Part shown: positions 2,420 through 46,662 of the stretch, one piece after another
How positions within the stretch are numbered: the stretch's first letter is position 1
Layout: each line of letters begins with the position of its first letter
Sequence record: PZ476263.1
Length of the DNA: 64,000 bases
Origin: a phage
Strand: one strand, 5' to 3'
Program-made: the position numbers and the translations under genes
The notes under the pieces: generated by a model
What the model saw: only the letters and a program-made list of their open reading frames with translations
Databases searched by the model: none
Told to the model about the DNA's origin: nothing

Positions 2420-4036
<1,617 letters not shown>

Positions 4037-4074: not shown

Positions 4075-5658
4075 ATGACGAATTCTGTAGTAGGTATGGC
4101 AGGTCACAATAATGGTGTATTTTATGGATACTCTCTTTATGACTTGGAGCAAAAAAGAAAGATAGCCTTTAAAGATTTAACTAAGGGTGACTCAGGGGCG
4201 AAGGGCGATAAGGGTGATCCTGGTCCAGAAGGTCCACAAGGTGATAAAGGAGATACCGGAGAGCAAGGCCCTGTAGGACCTCAAGGTCCTGCTGGTGCAC
4301 CAGGGCAACAAGGTGTGCCTGGTGAAAGAGGACCTCAAGGTCCCGAAGGCCCACAAGGCCCTCAAGGCCCAATTGGTCCCGAAGGACCAGTAGGACCAAT
4401 CGGCTCCCAAGGTCCCGAAGGTCCTAAAGGAGAGCAAGGTGAACAAGGCCCTTCTGGATCTCAAGGTCCTCAAGGATTAAAAGGGGATACAGGGGCACAA
4501 GGACCTCAAGGTCCCGTTGGACCCAGAGGAGAGACAGGTGCAACAGGACCTGTTGGACCTAAAGGGGACACAGGCCCAACAGGTCCAAAAGGAGAAACGG
4601 GTGAACAGGGACCCATTGGTCCGCAAGGACCTAAGGGTGATACAGGTCCCGTGGGTCCTGCAAGCTTAACCTTCAGAGGTTTCTATGAACCTCTTGAAGA
4701 ATACAACGAAAAGGATACAGTAGCTTATAATGGTTCTACTTATTTTGCGTTAAGAACCAGTACAGGAGCAACACCGGATATTTCTCCCGATGACTGGGCA
4801 TTACTTGCAGCTGAAGGTGCAGTTGGACCACAAGGACCTATGGGACCAGAGGGTCCGCAAGGTATCGCTGGTGCTCAAGGTCAGGAAGGCCCTATAGGAC
4901 CGCAAGGTGAACAGGGTCCGGTTGGACCTGTTGGCCCACAAGGCCCACAAGGTCCTGCGGGTCAGGAAGGAATAGAAGGCCCTCAGGGACCTCAAGGAGA
5001 AGAAGGCCCTATGGGACCTCAGGGACCACAAGGGATTGTAGGACCAACAGGTCCACAAGGCCCTCAAGGCCCCAAAGGGGACACTGGTGCAGTTGGACCA
5101 CAAGGTCCTCAAGGCCAACAAGGTCTTGATGGTCCACAAGGCCCTGCTGGTCCGCAAGGCGAAAGAGGTGTTACTGGACTAACCGGACCCCAAGGTCCCA
5201 AGGGTGATATCGGCCCTGTGGGTCCGGCTGGCCCTCAAGGTAAGGATGGTAATTCTTACACTATCTACAACTGGGGCAACATATCAACGGGCTATGGTGA
5301 GATGGTAATACCTGGTGTTACTAACACAGTATTCAGAGTGAGACGAGTAGGAACCACATTAGAATACAGTGTACTTAGTAAAGGTGGTGCGAATAGATAC
5401 CTTGACTTCCATACCATAATTCCAGCCCCCTCTACAGGGGGCGCTGTAATTATCCAATCAGGAAATACAACATTGACATCCTCCAGCTCTTTAAATGTTG
5501 TTACATCTGCACCTCCTGGTCTTGGTTTTCGACCAATATTCATCTCTTTAAAAGAGTGGGGAGATAGGGCAATAGTAACCATAGAGGTTTTCCACACAGG
5601 TAGAAGTGGAGATTCCAGTTACCCAATACATGTTCGTATGCTAACGACGAAGTATTGA
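4075..5658 (+). CDS. collagen-like fibre protein, paralog of 2420-4036
   Basis: Same N-terminal motif ('[22 protein letters not shown]') and Gly-X-Y architecture, different C-terminal domain. Confidence 0.65.
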
Positions 5659-36852: not shown

Positions 36853-37755
36853 TTAGTGACAATCTCCCCAGCTGTATCCACACAAGTATTCCCCTGTGAT
36901 ATGCACTGGTGATTTCATCATCTTAGCTGCTTGTTCGACACAACGAACAACCATCTCTCCTACAGGGCAGTATGTAATAGTGAAGATACCATTTTCATCT
37001 GGATCACACTTAAACTTACCTTCCTTGACACAATGGCCTTCGAGGACCATCTTCTTAGCAAGACATGCCTCAACAAAAGCTTTTGCATCAGCTTCGTTAT
37101 CAAACTTCCATACCTTTTTGAACTTCTCCGGCACTTCAAGCTGGTACTCGTCATGGTAATAAATTGTACGACGTACACCTTGATCATACCAACCTTTTTT
37201 AACCAGCTGCCAATGCAACAGGATACCTACCAAGTCAAACATGGCAGCACCACCGTTCTGTTGGAAAGCGTTAAGCAATGAGTGTTTGGATCGGGTATAG
37301 ATCTTACGACCATCAAGACCATAAATGAATCGTTTACCGTTGGCTTCCCAAAACTTCTCAAGTGCTTCTTTACGACCTTTCAAACCTAAGTTGCTATCCC
37401 AAAATGCATCGATTACTGCTTGTGCTTTCTCCAATGAAATTCCAAGCATGGATGCAATCTTAGCTGCTTGAGCACCGTACATAATTCCATAGGTGATCCC
37501 CTTTCCTTCCCCACGAGATACTTTCTTACCCGCTGCCTTGGTATATGCTTCTGCGTTTCGACTATGAGCATCACCACTTTCCATAATTCGGAGGTAAGCA
37601 CCACCATCGAATTCATAACTTCCCCATGCAGCGACCATACCCTCTAAGTTAGAACCGTCTATACCTACCTGATACTTACCCTCGGGTACAGTGAAAAGGT
37701 CACGCATTTCTTTACCTAGAAGAACCTTAGGATCAGGCTTCGGCACGTTAGCACA
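36853..37755 (-). CDS. DNA polymerase (family A), 3' exon
   Basis: Contains motif A-like 'VGIDGSNLEGM', motif B-like 'ITYGIMYGAQAAKIA' and motif C 'YHDEYQLEV'. Frame stays open upstream of the GTG ('..ANVPKP', cf. PNLxNIP). Confidence 0.75.
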   Translation of the reverse strand, partial: CANVPKPDPKVLLGKEMRDLFTVPEGKYQVGIDGSNLEGMVAAWGSYEFDGGAYLRIMESGDAHSRNAEAYTKAAGKKVSRGEGKGITYGIMYGAQAAKIASMLGISLEKAQAVIDAFWDSNLGLKGRKEALEKFWEANGKRFIYGLDGRKIYTRSKHSLLNAFQQNGGAAMFDLVGILLHWQLVKKGWYDQGVRRTIYYHDEYQLEVPEKFKKVWKFDNEADAKAFVEACLAKKMVLEGHCVKEGKFKCDPDENGIFTITYCPVGEMVVRCVEQAAKMMKSPVHITGEYLCGYSWGDCH

Positions 37756-38959
37756 ATATGTTCGTTAAAGGTCGCAACTCTTTAACCGGGATCGTATACA
37801 CCTGAAGAAATATCTCTTCACACTTTCGAGTACGATTCCTGTTTCTTTTGCTACGTCACAGAAATCTTTCCCATCAAGTATCATTTTTGTTATCTCTAGT
37901 TCCAACTCTTCTTTAGTTTTGTTTCTTAACTTACTGACCCCAAAAGTTTTATCTTCGGCAAATTTACCGATAAAAAATCTAACTGTCGGTTTCTCTAAGT
38001 TTAGGATCTCACAAATCTTTAAAAGAGTCGCACCTTTCCACCATAAAGATCTTGCTTCTTCTGCAAGATGTTTCTTTTCTTCCACTTCAGAAACACATTT
38101 CCCCATGTCGAAAGTTTTTAAGTATCTTGCTGCAAAGTGCCTTTCTTGTCCAAGGTCCAGAGAGATTTTTGCATACGAATCACCTGCCAGATATCTTTTA
38201 TGGATGTGCAGATACATCTCTCCATAGTTATCAAAGCCGGATTGTTTTGCTCTATTATCTCTTTTTGCCATTGAACTTCTTTCAGATGCGATAGTTTTTA
38301 TGGACTCACCAAAAGAGTTTCCAATTGCATCTGGACTAGGACTCACCGCTGAAAAAGTATTATTAGTCATGTTATAGAATTCTGTATTGTTGGCTGCATC
38401 ATTCTCTAAAAGAACTTTTTCTTCGATTTCACGAAGGAGATCTCTTTTGTCTACAACTTCCAACACCTCAGCTACAAATCTATGACCACTTTTTAAATCC
38501 TTTTTCATATCTGGATTGGAAGAGGACCCAAGATAAGGTTTTCCACTCTTAATCGAGATTATTGTGGGGATTCCATCCACATCTATCACTTTGCATTCAC
38601 TTTTACTTCCGATATATTTGTTCGGGTATTCTTCTTTATCGATGTTTTTCAAGAGATAAACAATGTTCATGTATACGTCCTCCGCTGTATCTTTCAACAC
38701 AGTTCAGACTATATCTTTGACACACTAAAGGATAGCTGAACCAATCTACCCCTAATGTATCACAAACCACTTCGATTGTCTACGCTTACAATCTACGCCT
38801 TCCGGCTAGTCGTTGAACCTTCTACCTGTCTGGTAGCTTGGCTGCTGATTGCCCAATCCTTTAACTTTTTAAACCTTCGCTTTGTATTCCTACTCGCAGT
38901 GGTATAAAGGCTCTAAGGGGTTCCCAGCAATTCAATTTGTTTTATACTGAGGCAGCTTT
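37756..38959 (-). mobile_element. group I intron (with homing endonuclease ORF) in the DNA polymerase gene
   Basis: Minus-strand RNA carries the conserved elements in order: P-like AAUUGCUGGGAAC (38920-38931), Q-like AAUCAGCAGCC (38840-38850), R-like GUUCAACGACUAG (38806-38818), S-like AAGAUAUAGUC (38707-38717). Boundaries approximate. Confidence 0.7.
37765..38670 (-). CDS. GIY-YIG family homing endonuclease (intron-encoded)
   Basis: Starts 'MNIVYLLKNIDKEEYPNKYIGSK...' (IVY...YIGS, cf. I-TevI GIY...YVGS); SD GGAGGA; ORF lies 3' of the intron core. Confidence 0.6.
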   Translation of the reverse strand: MNIVYLLKNIDKEEYPNKYIGSKSECKVIDVDGIPTIISIKSGKPYLGSSSNPDMKKDLKSGHRFVAEVLEVVDKRDLLREIEEKVLLENDAANNTEFYNMTNNTFSAVSPSPDAIGNSFGESIKTIASERSSMAKRDNRAKQSGFDNYGEMYLHIHKRYLAGDSYAKISLDLGQERHFAARYLKTFDMGKCVSEVEEKKHLAEEARSLWWKGATLLKICEILNLEKPTVRFFIGKFAEDKTFGVSKLRNKTKEELELEITKMILDGKDFCDVAKETGIVLESVKRYFFRCIRSRLKSCDL

Positions 38960-40694
38960 AGTTTACCACAGTGTGTTTACGACGGCCTGTATTCGTTATT
39001 CCAGTATAACGTGCAGGTAATTTACCGTCCACCGCAAGTCGAGGATGGTTTAACCAACCTGTATCTACTTTATCCTCTTTCAAAGGATCAAGAACACTTC
39101 GACGGTTACGAAGAGATAGCCATTTTACAATCTGCTTTGCCATATCACCATCGACTCGCTCAAGGTTAGGACAAAGGCCCTGCTGATCCTTAAGCTGCGG
39201 TGATGTTGGTAATGCTCTTGCCTTCTTCCTGAAGAACTTATACATCTTCTCTTTATCTTGCCACTGCTTACCACTGATACCTAAACTTTTCAGAATCAGA
39301 TCGCGATATTCAGTCTGGTCAAGATCATCAATGTATTGACGAACAATGATATCGACTTCGTTATCGGGACGTTGTTTCTTAAACTGGTCCTTCGTCGCAT
39401 CTTTGGTTCGCCACAATGTTGGGACCCAACCCGCATCACGAATAAGGAATTTTTTAACGTCATCCTGATTACCAATACGCATCGGAATCATAATATCCGG
39501 CATCTTTTGATCTTTGATATCCATCAATGCACGGGCCATGTCTTCCGGTGGCAAAGGTACAAGATTTTCCTTTTTCACATTTTGAGAACGAATAAATTCA
39601 GCCATTTTGGATTCATCTTCTACACCATGCTCTACACAATACTTAATTGCAGCAGATGTGAGTGAACCATCGCCCTTAAACGGCTTACTTGGAGCGCCTT
39701 TAAATTCAAGAGCTTCCCAATTCACATTGTAACCTAACTTCTCTAACCATTTCCAGCCCGTACCAGAAAGAGATCCATCTCCTTTAAACGGCTTAGACGG
39801 GAAAGTAGGCTGTGCTGACTTGGACATCTCTTTCTTCGGCAGCTTTGGTTCAACCTCTTCTTCAATTTCTTTCATCATCGTATCAATACGATCACGCAAA
39901 GCTAAACCTTTCTCCACGTCGAAAGTAACACCCTGAATTTCTTGCTCAACCATCAAATAGTCGGTAAGCATACCTCGACGCAAGGCATTCTTCCAATTGA
40001 TGAGCTTCATCTTCTTCGGATCTTTGTCCGATTCATCTTTGTACATGAAACGTTTATCATCCGGCATAGAGTCACATGAAATTTCTTTCATGAGGGCATC
40101 CCATACCATTTCGTTGATGATTACGTCTTCAATAATACGATCACAATATTTCCACAAAGGGAGTCCACGCCAATCTTCGATTGCTACCTTCTGGTTTGCT
40201 ACTCGCATACCCCAAGCTTCAAGTCCATGAGGGCCTACAGGCTTCATTTTACCTGTAACTGGGTTCTTTACCATCTCGGGACAACCGCGCGGCAGAGGGC
40301 GATCTGGATACAGTGTACGGGACATTGAAAGGGTATCGAAGATGTTAACTTGTTTACCATTGATAGTCCCCATGCAACCAGGGTCTGCAAACATATCGTA
40401 TGTTGTTCCAAACATCTTTTTAAACAGCTGTAAGTCATAGCCGAAGATATTATGGATAGCAACAGCTTTTGGTTCAGTCACAAACCACTCATTAAGTTCT
40501 TCCAACTTACGGATCTTAAAGTTCTTACCTTTGGATTGAATAAACTTAACCGCTTGCTCGTAGCCTTCGCGGTTCGGATCGATAAAAATATTCCAATTGT
40601 CCTTTTTGTACTCTTTAAAAAGAACACAGTGAACAAGATCAACTTCTGTCAACAGGCCGTTAGCCTCTGCATCTCCAATAAACAAACCTTTCAT
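38958..40694 (-). CDS. DNA polymerase (family A), 5' exon with 3'-5' exonuclease domain
   Basis: N-terminus 'MKGLFIGDAEANGLL' matches the T7-type Exo I motif; ends '...YTGITNTGRR' (cf. TGR..PNL.NIP) before running into intron sequence. Confidence 0.75.
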   Translation of the reverse strand: MKGLFIGDAEANGLLTEVDLVHCVLFKEYKKDNWNIFIDPNREGYEQAVKFIQSKGKNFKIRKLEELNEWFVTEPKAVAIHNIFGYDLQLFKKMFGTTYDMFADPGCMGTINGKQVNIFDTLSMSRTLYPDRPLPRGCPEMVKNPVTGKMKPVGPHGLEAWGMRVANQKVAIEDWRGLPLWKYCDRIIEDVIINEMVWDALMKEISCDSMPDDKRFMYKDESDKDPKKMKLINWKNALRRGMLTDYLMVEQEIQGVTFDVEKGLALRDRIDTMMKEIEEEVEPKLPKKEMSKSAQPTFPSKPFKGDGSLSGTGWKWLEKLGYNVNWEALEFKGAPSKPFKGDGSLTSAAIKYCVEHGVEDESKMAEFIRSQNVKKENLVPLPPEDMARALMDIKDQKMPDIMIPMRIGNQDDVKKFLIRDAGWVPTLWRTKDATKDQFKKQRPDNEVDIIVRQYIDDLDQTEYRDLILKSLGISGKQWQDKEKMYKFFRKKARALPTSPQLKDQQGLCPNLERVDGDMAKQIVKWLSLRNRRSVLDPLKEDKVDTGWLNHPRLAVDGKLPARYTGITNTGRRKHTVVN

Positions 40695-40778: not shown

Positions 40779-41012
40779 TTAATCTTCAATCAATTCGAAT
40801 TCTGGAGCGAAGAGAACTATATTTTGGTCCTCTTCACCTGCCCAGATCCTTGCTGTACAAGGCTTGCCGCTTTTACAACAAAAGTAAACATCGGCCTCGT
40901 AGATATCTCCTACAGAAATTCCATAAGAAGAAAGACTAACGCCATTGGTATCGGGAATGTCGTTCTTTCTGATCTTTATCGAAATTTCTTTTTCTACATA
41001 TGTATTTCTCAA
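40779..41012 (-). CDS. hypothetical small protein, possibly distant array relative
   Basis: 77 aa, 'GDIYEA' and acidic end 'LFAPEFELIED'. Confidence 0.3.
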   Translation of the reverse strand: MRNTYVEKEISIKIRKNDIPDTNGVSLSSYGISVGDIYEADVYFCCKSGKPCTARIWAGEEDQNIVLFAPEFELIED

Positions 41013-41452
41013 CGTTCAATCTCCTTCTTTTTGGACATAGTGATGAAATAGTTCTGACCTTTCTTGCACTGGTTAAACCAGCCAACAAGATATCCATCTT
41101 CGATACGAATATCATACTCAGGGTATTCGCCCGTTCCACTGATTATATGGAAAAGTTTACCGAAGTCAATAAAGGTCAGATTATACTGAAAGTTTTCCTC
41201 GTCCTGGAAGATTGCAACAGCAGAGCTTCGGCCCTTTGACGTAGTAATAAACTTAAGTTTAAGTTCACGATGCTCATGATCGACAATGTTAACTTTTCTC
41301 TCAAGCAAGTAATTTGGGTCAACACGGGGCCAATGAGCTTTAAATCTTTCAGCGCCTTCTTCAGTAAAGGCATCACCATCGTAACCAGTAAACCATTTAC
41401 CATTATCTTTTACGTAGCCATGATAACTACGCTTACCTTTTACTTTAATCAT
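41009..41452 (-). CDS. hypothetical protein
   Basis: 147-aa ORF, ATGA overlap. Confidence 0.4.
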   Translation of the reverse strand: MIKVKGKRSYHGYVKDNGKWFTGYDGDAFTEEGAERFKAHWPRVDPNYLLERKVNIVDHEHRELKLKFITTSKGRSSAVAIFQDEENFQYNLTFIDFGKLFHIISGTGEYPEYDIRIEDGYLVGWFNQCKKGQNYFITMSKKKEIER

Positions 41453-41652
41453 TCCGTTATCTCCTCTTGTTCTGGATCTTCGATCATTGAGCTTTTAACT
41501 CTTGACCCGTATGTGGTCATTTCACCCGACCTACTCGAACCCTCAGGTGCTCTTATGACAGCATGACCTCTTAATAGTGTTCCTTCGTAGGTTTGTCCAA
41601 CTACAAAACCCATTTGGGAAACACCATTATCTCTATAACAAAGTAAATTCAT
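41449..41652 (-). CDS. tandem small-protein family, member 11 (divergent)
   Basis: 'VVGQTYEG' ... 'IEDPEQEEITE'. Start uncertain. Confidence 0.35.
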   Translation of the reverse strand: MNLLCYRDNGVSQMGFVVGQTYEGTLLRGHAVIRAPEGSSRSGEMTTYGSRVKSSMIEDPEQEEITE

Positions 41653-41863
41653 CGTTCTCTATTTTAATTTCCTCTGTGATTTTATTTTCGGGATCAAGAA
41701 TAAGGCATGACTTTTTACACGGCACGGAATAAAACAACCCCCGCTCGTTTGGACAGATAATTAAAATATTTCGACCTCCCATATCTTTACCCTCGTAAGA
41801 CTCTCCTACCATTACCCCTTTGTCCCTCAGGAAACTATCCTCTTTTATGTAGATATACCTCAT
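41633..41863 (-). CDS. tandem small-protein family, member 10
   Basis: 'MRYIYIKED...VGESYEG...CLILDPENK'; pairs with member 4. Confidence 0.45.
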   Translation of the reverse strand: MRYIYIKEDSFLRDKGVMVGESYEGKDMGGRNILIICPNERGLFYSVPCKKSCLILDPENKITEEIKIENDEFTLL

Positions 41864-42060
41864 AGGCTGTTTTCCTCAGGGTCAAGAATAAAATGTTTAT
41901 CTTCGCAAAATCCCCAGTTATTTTCTCGTCCTAATGGATAGATACAGAGAATATTTTTCTTTATACTTGCATATTTCCCTTCATAAGTACAGCCTATTTC
42001 TACATGTTTCCAAGTAGGAACACTTAAGCATATGTATTTTTTAAATGTTTCTTCATTCAT
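41860..42060 (-). CDS. tandem small-protein family, member 9
   Basis: 'KKYICLS...GCTYEG...LCIYP...FILDPEENSL'. Confidence 0.45.
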   Translation of the reverse strand: MNEETFKKYICLSVPTWKHVEIGCTYEGKYASIKKNILCIYPLGRENNWGFCEDKHFILDPEENSL

Positions 42061-42256
42061 TTTGGTCCTCCCCCTCAGGGTCAATAACGAAGTGTATAGA
42101 ATTTAAATATCTTATCCCACCATCCAACCCTGTCGGGTAGATACAAAGATAGTGAAGCATTACGCTATCTTCACATCCATAATAAGTCGATCCTAAAGAA
42201 ACTTGACTGCTTGCTTTATCTGATAAGCAGATGTACTTTTTTAAATCCTGTTTCAT
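42053..42256 (-). CDS. tandem small-protein family, member 8
   Basis: 'KKYICLS...GSTYYG...LCIYP...FVIDPEGEDQNE'. Confidence 0.45.
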   Translation of the reverse strand: MKQDLKKYICLSDKASSQVSLGSTYYGCEDSVMLHYLCIYPTGLDGGIRYLNSIHFVIDPEGEDQNE

Positions 42257-42459
42257 TCATTAACCTCCTCAGGGTCGAGAATGAAATCATTAAAATCGCA
42301 AATTATCCAATCAGCAGACCAAGGGTGATGACCATCAGGGAAAATATATAGAACACCAGGTATCATTCCCCCTATAAAACCTGTATATGTCTCGCCTATT
42401 TTGACAAGATCCTCGTTACTTTTTATACAGAGGAACTTTTTAGTGTTTTTATCTCTCAT
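42253..42459 (-). CDS. tandem small-protein family, member 7
   Basis: 'KKFLCIKS...GETYTG...LYIFP...FILDPEEVNE'. Confidence 0.45.
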   Translation of the reverse strand: MRDKNTKKFLCIKSNEDLVKIGETYTGFIGGMIPGVLYIFPDGHHPWSADWIICDFNDFILDPEEVNE

Positions 42460-42662
42460 TTTTTAATATCCTCTGGTTCCTTTGCAAAACTCTTAGTGCC
42501 TATATATACCCATCCACTACCTATTCCATGAGGATATATACAAAGTGCATCCGACATTGTACTGTCGAATCCTGAATAAGTCTCCCCCAAATTAAGATTT
42601 GAGCATCCTTTGGTGCTTATGCATATGTAATTTTGAATATACATTTCAGGTTTTTGTTTCAT
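42456..42662 (-). CDS. tandem small-protein family, member 6
   Basis: Start at the ATG with SD GAGGAG: 'MKQKPEMYIQNYICIS...GETYSG...LCIYP...AKEPEDIKK'. Confidence 0.45.
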   Translation of the reverse strand: MKQKPEMYIQNYICISTKGCSNLNLGETYSGFDSTMSDALCIYPHGIGSGWVYIGTKSFAKEPEDIKK

Positions 42663-42666
42663 TTTA

Positions 42667-42864
42667 TTACTCCTCGTGCTCGGGGTCAAGAACGAAGTCC
42701 GCAGAATGATAGTACACACCATAAGTTTCTATCCCTTTCGGAAAAATATGAAGATAGTTGCTCATTAAAATATCTTTACGACCATAATAGGTCAATCCTT
42801 GAGAGATTGCTGTACCTGCCTCATCAGATATGCAAAGATACTTTTTAAATCCTATTTCACTCAT
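42667..42864 (-). CDS. tandem small-protein family, member 5
   Basis: 'KKYLCIS...GLTYYG...LHIFP...FVLDPEHEE'. Confidence 0.45.
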   Translation of the reverse strand: MSEIGFKKYLCISDEAGTAISQGLTYYGRKDILMSNYLHIFPKGIETYGVYYHSADFVLDPEHEE

Positions 42865-43053
42865 TTAATCTCCTTCCGGATCAGCCGCTAAGCAAGATCC
42901 CTTACAAGGTGCTGACCTGAGCCAACCCTCATCGTTTAAATAGTAAATGATAATAACAGCATCTCCTATACCCTCAGTGCCTTCGTAAGATTCTCCTATT
43001 ATCAACGGGTAGTCTTCCAAAAGGCGATCTTCTTTTATGTAGATATATTTCAT
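42865..43053 (-). CDS. tandem small-protein family, member 4
   Basis: 'MKYIYIKED...IGESYEG...CLAADPEGD'. Confidence 0.45.
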   Translation of the reverse strand: MKYIYIKEDRLLEDYPLIIGESYEGTEGIGDAVIIIYYLNDEGWLRSAPCKGSCLAADPEGD

Positions 43054-43245
43054 TTATTCATCGCCTTCGGGATCTTCGACAAAATTATCTAACTTTACAG
43101 GCATAGATAAATTATCAGTCACCTTCACTGTGATGTAAATACTTTGAAAAGATTTAAATTTATTCTCTTCCCGATAAGTCTCGCCAACTACCAAGAGTTT
43201 AGAGTCCTTATTTTGTATGCATAGATAATTTGTCATTGTTTTCAC
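43054..43245 (-). CDS. tandem small-protein family, member 3
   Basis: 'NYLCIQN...VGETY...FVEDPEGDE'. Confidence 0.45.
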   Translation of the reverse strand: MKTMTNYLCIQNKDSKLLVVGETYREENKFKSFQSIYITVKVTDNLSMPVKLDNFVEDPEGDE

Positions 43246-43445
43246 CTGTATTCAGGGTCTTCCGTGAAACTCTCCTTATTGAAAAATAGAGTAGTATCTT
43301 CATTTGGGAACGTTATAGGTATGTACTTACCCCGAGGAATACTATCGTTTATAAAGTAAGTCATACCTAATTGAAGTTTAGTGCTGTGTATGTTACTTAT
43401 ACATATAACCCCGACAAATCTTTCACCCTTCCTCTCCTTCTTCAT
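43242..43445 (-). CDS. tandem small-protein family, member 2
   Basis: 'VGVICIS...LGMTYF...FTEDPEYR'. Confidence 0.4.
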   Translation of the reverse strand: MKKERKGERFVGVICISNIHSTKLQLGMTYFINDSIPRGKYIPITFPNEDTTLFFNKESFTEDPEYR

Positions 43446-43632
43446 ATATTTCAGGATCCTCTACAAAATCAGATTTCTTAAGCCATAGTTCCAAAGTATC
43501 ACTTACCCTTACGGATATCTGCCCACCAAATATTTTAGATGGTCTTACATAGTAAGTTTCTCCGATTACAAGTTTGTAAGTAGACCTATTGCTAACGCAG
43601 AGAAACTTAACATATTTTTGCTGTATACTCAT
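43423..43632 (-). CDS. tandem small-protein family, member 1
   Basis: 'VKFLCVS...IGETYY...FVEDPEIYEEGEEG'. Confidence 0.45.
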   Translation of the reverse strand: MSIQQKYVKFLCVSNRSTYKLVIGETYYVRPSKIFGGQISVRVSDTLELWLKKSDFVEDPEIYEEGEEG

Positions 43633-43949
43633 GCAAGGCTTCGAACATACTCAAAGACTTTTTCATAATCTTCACCAAAGGAAACATAACCACTTCCCTT
43701 CGGATTGTCTAAACCATATGAATCGTCTTCAAATTTTTCCAGAATGATCCCGCCAGTGTATTCGATATACATCAAATCTCGTACTTTTGTCCACTTACCT
43801 ATACCAAAGGAAGCGAGATCTTTTTTGCAAATTTTAACATGCATATCTTTCTCTCCAGTATGATAGATATAAACATCCCCACTTTGGAGCTGTTCAACAA
43901 TGACCTCTGGAAAGATACCGCTTTGTGATTTACCGAATACCTTTTTCAT
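43629..43949 (-). CDS. hypothetical protein
   Basis: 106-aa ORF immediately upstream of the array, ATGA overlap. Confidence 0.4.
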   Translation of the reverse strand: MKKVFGKSQSGIFPEVIVEQLQSGDVYIYHTGEKDMHVKICKKDLASFGIGKWTKVRDLMYIEYTGGIILEKFEDDSYGLDNPKGSGYVSFGEDYEKVFEYVRSLA

Positions 43950-43963
43950 TTTACCCCCAATAA

Positions 43964-44644
43964 TTAGTGATTGAATTTAAAAACTGCCCGTGCAAAACCT
44001 TCTGGTGTTAGTGATCGCAATTGTTTTGTCCGATCAGACTTTCCACCTAAATACCGCCATCCCCAAAAACATCCAATATGTTCAACAGGTTTCTTTTCAG
44101 GCATTATAAACCCATTTCCTGACCAAAGGCAAGTCTTTTTAGTGTAGGCATTCTGTAAAGGCATCTGAGGATGATAAGAACCTTCGTGTGGTTCCAGATA
44201 ACCCCCATACTCATACGGATCAAAGTAATGGTCAGGTTTTCGCCATAGGGTACTCATCTTTCCTACAGGATTCTCCACAAACCAAGGACAATTAAATGTA
44301 TTCGCAATCCGCTCTACCATTTTTGCATTGATGATTGACTCCATCAACTGATCATTAGTCCTCTCATGTTTTGCACCCGCTACCGTTAAGTTTGTGCAAG
44401 AAGGGAAAGAGAAGATGATATCTGGCTTTGGGATACCCGCTTTGGCTGCAAAGGCTTCAAAATTATCATCAATCCAACAATTCACATACTCAATATTTGG
44501 ATGCTCTTTACGCATCTTGTACTGACCGTGATCCGCCGTATCGGCATTGAAGCAATAAACTTTCCAACCTGCCTTTGCATACTCATAGCCCATAAAGCCA
44601 CTACCGTCAAAAAGCGACCAAACCACTTTAAAAATATTAATCAT
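43964..44644 (-). CDS. methyltransferase-like protein with C5-cytosine-MTase-type motifs
   Basis: 'SLFDGSGFMG' (motif I-like F.G.G), 'FPSCTNLTVAG' (Pro-Cys motif IV-like), 'FVENPVG' (ENV-like motif VI). Only 226 aa, no obvious target-recognition domain. Confidence 0.35.
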   Translation of the reverse strand: MINIFKVVWSLFDGSGFMGYEYAKAGWKVYCFNADTADHGQYKMRKEHPNIEYVNCWIDDNFEAFAAKAGIPKPDIIFSFPSCTNLTVAGAKHERTNDQLMESIINAKMVERIANTFNCPWFVENPVGKMSTLWRKPDHYFDPYEYGGYLEPHEGSYHPQMPLQNAYTKKTCLWSGNGFIMPEKKPVEHIGCFWGWRYLGGKSDRTKQLRSLTPEGFARAVFKFNH

Positions 44645-44645
44645 A

Positions 44646-44975
44646 TTATCCTCGGATTGAAAGTTTCGCCAAATAAAATATAACCAGGTACAAGCCGTAT
44701 GCTAACGCAACCGAACTCAGTATTGTAATTGTGACAGGCAAGGCCCATAAAAGAACGATAATCATCATCGTTAAACCGAATGCTCCACCAAAACACTCTA
44801 AAAAAGCTTCACTTCCGAACTTAATGGGGTCCAAAGATTTCTTTATCTTGTCCCTTAGGAAAAGAAAAGACATAATAACAAATATTGCGATCCCCAGCAA
44901 GACCCATTGGGTAACAGAGGTGTTTTGTCGGATAAAATGATACCATGCATCATAAATTACTGTCAAGTTTTCCAT
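44646..44975 (-). CDS. membrane protein
   Basis: 109 aa, three hydrophobic helices. Confidence 0.4.
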   Translation of the reverse strand: MENLTVIYDAWYHFIRQNTSVTQWVLLGIAIFVIMSFLFLRDKIKKSLDPIKFGSEAFLECFGGAFGLTMMIIVLLWALPVTITILSSVALAYGLYLVIFYLAKLSIRG

Positions 44976-46601: not shown

Positions 46602-46630
46602 AGTATAAGGATATTTTAGGTGGCTGTCAA
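46602..46630 (-). promoter_or_regulatory. sigma70-like promoter
   Basis: TTGACA-N17-TATACT on minus strand. Confidence 0.45.
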
Positions 46631-46635
46631 TAGAA

Positions 46636-46662
46636 AAACCACCCCGAAGGGTGGTTTATTTT
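46636..46662 (-). terminator. rho-independent terminator after primase-helicase gene
   Basis: AAACCACCCC-GAA-GGGGTGGTTT with T-runs. Confidence 0.5.

Follow-up and report, generated by a model that had tools for sequence, protein, structure and literature searches.

What purpose might be served by eleven small, related genes packed end to end beside the replication genes of a phage? The question arises at positions 41449-43632 of a 64,000-nucleotide (nt) stretch of phage DNA (sequence record PZ476263.1; this whole stretch is hereafter the window), where a first-pass annotation made from the letters alone had noted a tandem array of 11 small paralogous open reading frames (ORFs) and had proposed host-takeover effectors, anti-defence proteins or decoys under diversifying selection. 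We find that the array encodes a single protein family, and that its members are held by purifying selection. Their products may form a repertoire of binders directed at the host, a reading that we favour tentatively.

The array was borne out at 41449-43632 as 11 co-oriented minus-strand ORFs, head to tail and consecutive in a program-made ORF list. In the following description, letters denote subfamilies, and omega is the ratio of nonsynonymous to synonymous divergence.

Array gene 1: 43423..43632, minus strand; subfamily E, 69 amino acids (aa); orthologue omega 0.06-0.20.
Array gene 2: 43242..43445, minus strand; subfamily I, 67 aa; 23-nt overlap with gene 1.
Array gene 3: 43054..43236 (or to 43245), minus strand; subfamily J, 60 aa (or 63 aa).
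Array gene 4: 42865..43053, minus strand; subfamily M, 62 aa, of the MKYIYIKED type.
Array gene 5: 42667..42864, minus strand; subfamily K, 65 aa.
Array gene 6: 42456..42662, minus strand; subfamily D, 68 aa, with EPE in place of DPE.
Array gene 7: 42253..42459, minus strand; subfamily B, 68 aa, present in all arrays seen.
Array gene 8: 42053..42256, minus strand; subfamily F, 67 aa, the first member modelled.
Array gene 9: 41860..42060, minus strand; subfamily L, 66 aa; its ATG at 42060 is preceded by GGGGGAGG.
Array gene 10: 41633..41863, minus strand; subfamily A, 76 aa, of the MRYIYIKED type, with a disordered C-terminal extension.
Array gene 11: 41449..41652, minus strand; subfamily C, 67 aa, always last in the array.

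Gene starts were set from Shine-Dalgarno context and orthologue comparison, giving proteins of 60/63-76 aa. The 88-aa and 74-aa entries of the mechanical ORF list are over-extended, the former being gene 6 read from 42722. For gene 3, the ATG at 43236, with AGGTGA before it, is likely to be the true start rather than the GTG at 43245, and the orthologue in a related locus (L003) begins at the equivalent ATG.

These 11 ORFs are true paralogues of one old family. In leave-one-out searches of the 801 window ORFs, profiles built from ten members found the eleventh at E values from 5.5e-5 to 5e-19, and no ORF outside the array scored even at E<=100; a hidden Markov model (HMM) of the family likewise picks out exactly the 11 array genes in 64 kb. 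The resemblance noted in the first-pass annotation is thus well beyond chance. The paralogues within the window are 17-51% identical (median 25%), with only short DNA matches of 60-77% between them. The annotation had also described two alternating subtypes. We instead found the MxYIYIKED type only twice, in genes 4 and 10 (51% identical to each other), within a family of 4-5 clades arranged in positional blocks.

We searched for relatives in databases of sequences, domains and structures. Pfam, PHROG, NCBIfam and PADLOC gave no family match for any member: the best PHROG match (0.0056) was to a family of unknown function, and the single PADLOC match (0.021) was at chance level. A profile search of PDB sequences also gave no match, a structure search of BFVD yielded nothing beyond weak matches (E>0.01) to viral proteins that are uncharacterised, and Rfam found no RNA element in the array. 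Neither megablast nor sensitive blastn matched the array to any of 50,697 GenBank phage genomes, and sensitive blastn did not find it in complete E. coli genomes. A tblastn search of phage genomes, with gene 8 singly and the other members concatenated, returned only a chance match (E=0.4) in a tape-measure gene. IMG/VR peptide scans with subfamily C and with an F/K/L alignment gave no match, and a degenerate DNA pattern for the N-terminus of subfamily C had 0 matches among JGI metagenome contigs.

Relatives were found in larger protein collections. A word-seeded profile search of 5.8 billion proteins yielded 17 proteins, all of 59-76 aa and from a few metagenomic contigs, and these contigs revealed 5 further distinct arrays at the identical genomic position. 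Searching 1.84 billion representatives exhaustively with an HMM brought in just 3 more credible distant relatives, for a total of about 20 relatives among 1.84-5.8 billion proteins. The family is thus known only from a few metagenomic Vequintavirinae-like contigs, in arrays of 8-11 genes that span about 15 subfamilies, and we found no description of it in the literature. The earlier claim of a diversified array of an undescribed protein family holds, with no well-characterised domain matched in any of the family databases or in PDB sequences. In sequence this very rare family is new; its fold and the type of locus it occupies, a changeable array of small accessory phage genes, are already familiar.

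The three distant relatives lie on short phage-like contigs.

P0032: L011 4297-4962; 221 aa, two fused domains and a helical tail; adjoins a ClpP-family gene.
P0038: L012 2516-2764; 82 aa, a single domain; near a Kyano_Gp96 gene.
P0037: L013 239-1051; a four-repeat protein with a Pfam DUF6501 match (1.3e-10).

They have in common with the array family a C-I-x...G-x-x-Y pattern, are not arrayed, and mostly lack D-P-E. Because P0032 and P0037 are multi-domain proteins, the domain can occur as covalent tandem repeats as well as in separate genes. P0037 scores 41.4 bits against DUF6501 (cut-off 23.8). The link between the array family and DUF6501 is nevertheless weak: DUF6501 is listed for no array member at E<=1 in the Pfam search, and hhalign relates the family to P0037 with a probability of 19%. 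The three relatives are themselves uncharacterised, and we found no literature on DUF6501 either. Further candidates with long matches in several stretches (P0020, P0024/P0033 with DUF5719 repeats, P0034, P0035 with SpaA repeats, and others) were set aside, since by eye and by Pfam they resemble repeat or composition artefacts.

Clustering the 57 distinct genes from the 6 arrays at >=55% identity produced 15 subfamilies, which are ordered along the arrays as follows.

Window and L005: E I J M K D B F L A C.
L004: E H G D B F L A C.
L003: E I J B N K A A C, with two adjacent A-type genes.
L006-L008: E H F G D B A C.
L010: O H G D B F A C.

The array ends are conserved and the interior is variable, with subfamily M (gene 4) seen only in the window and L005. 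Related subfamilies are neighbours: the 5′ end is occupied by (E,O,H,I,J) and the middle by (B,D,F,K,L,N), followed by A/M and finally C, an arrangement that fits old local duplications. We rejected recent duplication or gene conversion, as there are no long identical DNA tracts and the repeats are short and weak.

Across the 57 genes, three residues alone are invariant: G and Y in G-x-T-Y, and P in the C-terminal motif. That motif, first described as an invariant DPE, is near-invariant: it reads DPE in 50 genes, EPE in 4, DPD in 2 and EPK in 1. Within the window, 10 genes have DPE and one has EPE, with P-E in all 11. A second motif from the first-pass annotation, (L/Y)(C/I)IYP, is present but restricted to the middle clade rather than family-wide. 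From their sequences, the members appear to be small (about 7 kDa), cytoplasmic and mostly acidic proteins, with a median isoelectric point (pI) of 4.94 and 51 of 56 members below pI 7; a charge and composition scan of these 56 found no hydrophobic run of >=10 residues.

Pairwise comparison of orthologues (Nei-Gojobori) gave omega values mostly of 0.05-0.3, at synonymous divergence (dS) from 0.2 to above 1. Higher values occurred only in subfamilies D (0.6-0.8, for the window lineage versus the others) and H (0.4-0.5), and subfamily C (gene 11) is the most conserved member, at 0.03-0.14. The genes are therefore real, protein-coding and under selection. Pooled over 17 orthologue pairs, omega was 0.09 for the scaffold and 0.25 for the loops; the tails gave 0.51 (N-terminal) and 0.37 (C-terminal). 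The values for scaffold and loops indicate purifying selection and do not support the ongoing diversifying selection that had been proposed, although all omegas here are pairwise averages, with which positive selection at single sites is compatible. The pattern looks like functional diversification of long ago, maintained since then by purifying selection, and not like a diversification that is still going on.

The genes are very tightly packed. Spacings from gene 1 to gene 11 are -23, -4, 0, 0, +4, -4, -4, -8, -4 and -20 nt, such that 7 of the 10 junctions overlap, as the annotation had said of most of them, with 2 abutting and 1 having a 4-nt spacer. At the array's ends, the start of gene 1 overlaps the stop of orf106 (ATGA), and gene 11 overlaps the start of orf147 by 4 nt. 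Spacing is equally tight in 4 other arrays (range over the 5 arrays, -23 to +5 nt), and Shine-Dalgarno-like 4-mers of the GAGG/GGAG type occur in the upstream tail codons at 6-8 of every 7-10 junctions. With its overlaps, Shine-Dalgarno sequences inside upstream genes and no internal terminators, the array has the sequence features of a translationally coupled polycistronic unit, which supports the coupling first suggested.

We next turn to structure. AlphaFold2 modelled gene 8, from a 24-sequence family alignment, as five strands with a predicted local distance difference test score (pLDDT) of 82.8. Gene 10, whose subfamily is only ~21% identical, was modelled with the same strand order (pLDDT 81.4), plus a short helix in the first loop and the disordered C-terminal extension. 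Both models are SH3-like, each a five-stranded barrel with RT, n-Src and distal loops; the nearest known folds are eukaryotic-type SH3 domains and, among other small beta-barrels, those of the KOW and Tudor-like kinds. The members are accordingly predicted to be single SH3-like five-stranded beta-barrels of ~60 residues. The first-pass annotation had not recognised the fold; in these predictions it is recognisable. Canonical SH3 sequence is absent, with neither a match to Pfam SH3_1 and its relatives nor the ALYDY / WW / SNY ligand residues.

In the models, residues shared across the family fall on strands (Y-I-C-I-S on beta1, G-x-T-Y on beta2, L-x-I on beta3, F on beta5), and D-P-E would form the turn after beta5. 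Entropy between subfamilies is ~0 at the motif columns and reaches ~3 bits in the loops, while conservation of the loops within each subfamily is 0.8-1.0. The RT, n-Src and distal loops are, in other words, unrelated between subfamilies and kept within each.

How do arrays with such similar ends come to differ in their interiors? The window and L004 are 96% identical in the flanks on both sides and differ in their complements: at window 43397-42692, 4 window genes (705 bp) correspond to 2 different genes (317 bp) in L004. The left break falls right after the ICIS of gene 2 (window 43397), producing a chimeric I/H gene in L004, and the one on the right at VLDPE in gene 5, with homology to L004, L006 and L010 resuming at FVLDPE (42689-42696). 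Over four comparisons, each of the 13 internal block ends lies within 4 codons of F-x-x-DPE, among the three opening codons or after ICIS, with 0 in codons 18-53; some of these breaks are inherited, so the 13 are not all independent. Whole cassettes have thus been exchanged between near-identical phages, with homology ending at family motifs. A partial precedent comes from a bacterial tandem paralogue cluster in which the evolutionary unit is reported to span two adjacent genes, from a 3′ region across the junction into the next gene (PMC2568036). The array blocks also span junctions and never end mid-gene; however, that cluster is bacterial and encodes unrelated proteins, and the pattern in the array is inflated by the extension of blastn alignments into shared motifs.

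A comparison of the window with its closest relative, L005 (97.4% identity overall), shows patchy divergence: 10.3% in orf109 (44646-44975, minus strand), 10.8% in gene 10 and 0-5% elsewhere. This patchiness suggests recent mosaic recombination within the operon. We rejected the idea that the array diverges faster than its flanks over this short term, as divergence is 0-10.8% per gene in both.

The D-P-E motif deserves separate consideration, because, together with the acidic tail, it might be mainly a by-product of constraints at the gene junctions (Shine-Dalgarno sequences, overlapping starts, recombination homology) rather than a protein motif. Several observations are in keeping with such an origin. 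At most junctions, the next gene's Shine-Dalgarno sequence is made up of the GAG/GAA/GGA codons of the acidic tail, so the short acidic tail described earlier, while present, partly doubles as a ribosome-binding signal; and homology blocks end at F-x-x-DPE. At 41633-41652 (minus strand), furthermore, the last 20 nt of gene 10 (...ENDEFTLL and stop) are the first 20 nt of gene 11 (MNLLCYR...) in two frames. The DEFTLL end is missing from the sole A-type gene with no gene C after it, and is therefore probably an overlap by-product imposed by the invariant MNLLCY start of gene C.

The D-P-E residues themselves fit this explanation poorly. Their codons vary (GAC 27 and GAT 25; CCT 28, CCC 14, CCA 11 and CCG 4; GAA 31 and GAG 23), and the G, Y, D, P and E motif residues each use all synonymous codons, which indicates that the constraint on D-P-E acts on amino acids. 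The Shine-Dalgarno sequences, moreover, lie mostly after the DPE codons, and within subfamilies no part is less conserved than the tail that follows DPE. A by-product origin for the motif is consequently improbable in our view, if well short of negligible. Since D-P-E is missing from P0038 and from the first of the two domains of P0032, the motif would not be needed for the fold and would serve something specific to the array. It could be a shared functional handle, reflecting either a common partner or a common capping requirement.

The genomic setting of the array bears on what its products might do. For the adjacent DNA polymerase, identity to that of Escherichia phage A7_1 (Septuagintavirus, Vequintavirinae; PMC11370258) is 93% in protein and ~85% in DNA, and identity to that of Cronobacter phage CR3 is 83%, values which indicate that the window comes from an uncultured rV5-like myovirus. 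A same-strand run comprises a hairpin/promoter, several small ORFs, a methyltransferase, orf106, the array, orf147, orf77 and the DNA polymerase. Its main landmarks are as follows.

46602..46657, minus strand: a terminator-like hairpin (GC-rich, with a T-tract), then a TTGACA-17-TATACT sigma70-like promoter, downstream of the primase/helicase gene.
43964..44644, minus strand: DNA methyltransferase (phrog_757), the left border of a variable slot.
43629..43949, minus strand: orf106, directly upstream of the array, with the ATGA overlap.
41009..41452, minus strand: orf147 (phrog_7983, conserved in Vequintavirinae), the right border of the variable slot.

The hairpin and promoter probably mark the start of the transcription unit containing the array, as a terminator-promoter pair that splits the replication region into operons. 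A 19-nt pattern, GGTGGTTTTTNNATTGACA, consisting of the hairpin 3′ arm, the T-tract and the -35 hexamer, is found exactly in 6 loci (L003-L007 and L010) and with 1 mismatch in A7_1. From this promoter to the polymerase, the coding strand has a single terminator-like site, a weak stem of 5 bp within orf106. The array thus sits in a replication-gene operon behind a conserved sigma70-like promoter, in agreement with the early-type region proposed for it, the timing being read from this position.

The methyltransferase, orf106 and orf147 all lack Pfam matches, and orf106 has no PHROG match either. orf106 is 80-100% conserved in all array-bearing phages and occurs only there, being absent from the A7_1 and CR3 loci. 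A comparison by hhalign (probability 0.7%) spoke against its being a divergent member of the family, but it could act as a partner of the array proteins. In place of the array, the slot of A7_1 (L001 3300-4846) holds a 110-aa protein and a 405-aa protein, the latter with a GHKL-like ELMQNAIDT motif by eye and no Pfam match. That of CR3 (L002 3059-5207) holds a Laminin_G_3 protein, a 124-aa ORF, a restriction-alleviation protein (Pfam Lar_restr_allev, E 1.4e-10) and a 317-aa DUF6923-like repeat protein. Because this cargo is unrelated among relatives, the slot is taken to be an accessory hot spot beside a self-protective methyltransferase. We also considered whether the relatives' slots encode a fused polyprotein version of the family, and rejected this since the A7_1 405-aa protein and the CR3 317-aa and 204-aa proteins are unrelated to it.

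Two further features of the window were noted in passing. The PolA-type DNA polymerase gene (36853-40694, minus strand) is split into an N-terminal ORF (38958-40694) and a C-terminal ORF (36853-37746). Between the halves lie a group I intron (RF00028, 38685-39052; 73.8 bits, E 7e-17 in Rfam) and a 311-aa ORF (37765-38700) with a weak homing-endonuclease PHROG match. The polymerase is uninterrupted in L003-L008 (876-877 aa) and interrupted differently in L010, with an HNH_3 ORF. Elsewhere, three adjacent tail-fibre paralogues on the plus strand (53-1729, 2420-4036 and 4075-5658) are 33-42% identical and have strong PHROG tail-fibre matches.

What, then, might the array do? We favour, at somewhat less than even chances, a co-transcribed, translationally coupled set of binders, each combining the common scaffold with variable loops, for host takeover or counter-defence. 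The repertoire would be made with the replication proteins in early or mid infection, and each subfamily would recognise its own target through its loops. This reading draws together the small acidic proteins on one scaffold, the conserved subfamily-specific loops, co-expression with replication genes, the variable complement and the accessory slot. Because the complement varies between near-identical phages and the slot adjoins a methyltransferase, the targets would most likely be host proteins, belonging either to defence systems or to the machinery taken over. A role as effectors, anti-defence proteins or decoys, as first suggested, is in this sense plausible, on the basis of context and analogy. 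One precedent is Nip, from an SPbeta-group phage, which has two predicted SH3-like domains and inhibits a host defence protein by binding (PMC11984713). The likeness is to its predicted fold, and Nip differs in being a 279-aa multidomain protein with an HU-like dimerisation domain, encoded by a single gene.

Several points weigh against this reading. The structural models were built on a shallow alignment of 24 sequences, the location of D-P-E in them is provisional, and an SH3-like fold is too generic to point to a function. No member resembles a characterised inhibitor, the known anti-defence families (PADLOC-DB, PHROG-annotated anti-restriction proteins, Acr-Aca loci) gave no match to the array, and neither an Aca-like regulator nor a known defence-related partner adjoins it. 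Expression timing comes only from position and a consensus promoter, and promoter-like sites in the region show no excess over shuffled sequence (27 against 21 +/- 4.5). The breakpoint pattern follows in part from blastn blocks, which are expected to extend into motifs that paralogues share. Finally, the core that all arrays share (E/O, I/H, B, A, C) and the purifying selection would also fit a role in the phage's own biology.

A more elaborate version of the binder repertoire would make it a phage counterpart of the immune-evasion multigene families of large eukaryotic viruses, a combinatorial library on a single SH3-like scaffold. Each cassette would use its loops to neutralise its own host target, whether in defence or in takeover, D-P-E would engage a common partner, recombination at junctions would trade cassettes, and the composition of the array would set host range. 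We regard this analogy as unlikely to hold in full.

The main rival is that the proteins serve the phage's own replication or DNA-modification machinery, as adaptors or accessory subunits that possibly co-assemble, in a structural or regulatory module. The array sits between a methyltransferase and a DNA polymerase in the replication operon, the same core occurs in all five array types with subfamily C strongly constrained, orf106 always accompanies the array, and the shared near-invariant C-terminal motif could dock on one phage partner. However, a role in basic machinery is made less likely by the absence of the family from close cultured relatives and by its variable copy number, and we consider it rather unlikely, though it must be taken seriously.

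We place less weight on a gene "accordion", in which redundant copies were amplified for dosage against a single host factor and have since drifted. In T4, the counter-defence gene tifA has been shown to undergo tandem amplification (PMC9391042), and copy number varies between arrays, with L003 carrying its two adjacent A-type genes. In the tifA/dmd region of T4-like phages, too, complements of small accessory genes differ between related phages through recombination-driven changes in copy number, and have been read as a record of the hosts infected (PMC9391042). The tifA amplifications, by contrast, are recent, identical, laboratory-selected repeats, whereas the array paralogues are ancient (median 25% identity) and individually conserved. 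Their loops are kept by subfamily across phages at dS up to above 1, and the long identical DNA tracts that would mark recent amplification or gene conversion are missing. Drifted redundant copies are thus distinctly improbable.

Less probable still is that the proteins are packaged in the virion and injected, in the manner of T4 internal proteins, with D-P-E marking them for targeting or for processing by a protease. The internal proteins of T-even phages, which enter the capsid along with the DNA, are a highly diverse set with a role in defence; all they have in common is a short capsid-targeting sequence at the N-terminus, and at least one of them, IPI*, inhibits a host restriction enzyme (PMC3012670). 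Both sets therefore consist of small, very diverse phage proteins with one short conserved motif. The array proteins differ in sharing their whole fold and not only a tag, and their motif is C-terminal, with variable N-termini; they share no N-terminal capsid tag. Their genes lie in the replication operon and not in a late or structural module, a position that does not indicate late expression. Most members are acidic; the T4 internal proteins, in contrast, use lysines to contact the DNA with which they are packaged (PMC3012670). We think a virion role very unlikely.

Lastly, chance ORFs or decaying selfish duplicates, to which the rarity of the family, its lack of known homologues and of direct expression evidence might point, can be dismissed with near certainty, given omega well below 1 in every subfamily at dS from 0.2 to above 1, intact frames in six independent arrays, conserved starts and Shine-Dalgarno sequences, and confident fold predictions.

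Phages of the rV5 type are used in phage therapy, and to our knowledge their early genes are almost entirely uncharacterised. If the array is indeed a binder repertoire, this 2.2-kb locus would supply 8-11 compact (~7 kDa), naturally diversified inhibitors on one scaffold, and each member would point to a host protein important in rV5-type infection. Even on a conservative reading, the locus adds a new family with a confidently predicted fold and a puzzling, near-invariant D-P-E that is absent from its non-arrayed relatives. It is also a clean natural case of cassette shuffling in a phage operon, which may prove useful for studying how accessory repertoires are assembled.

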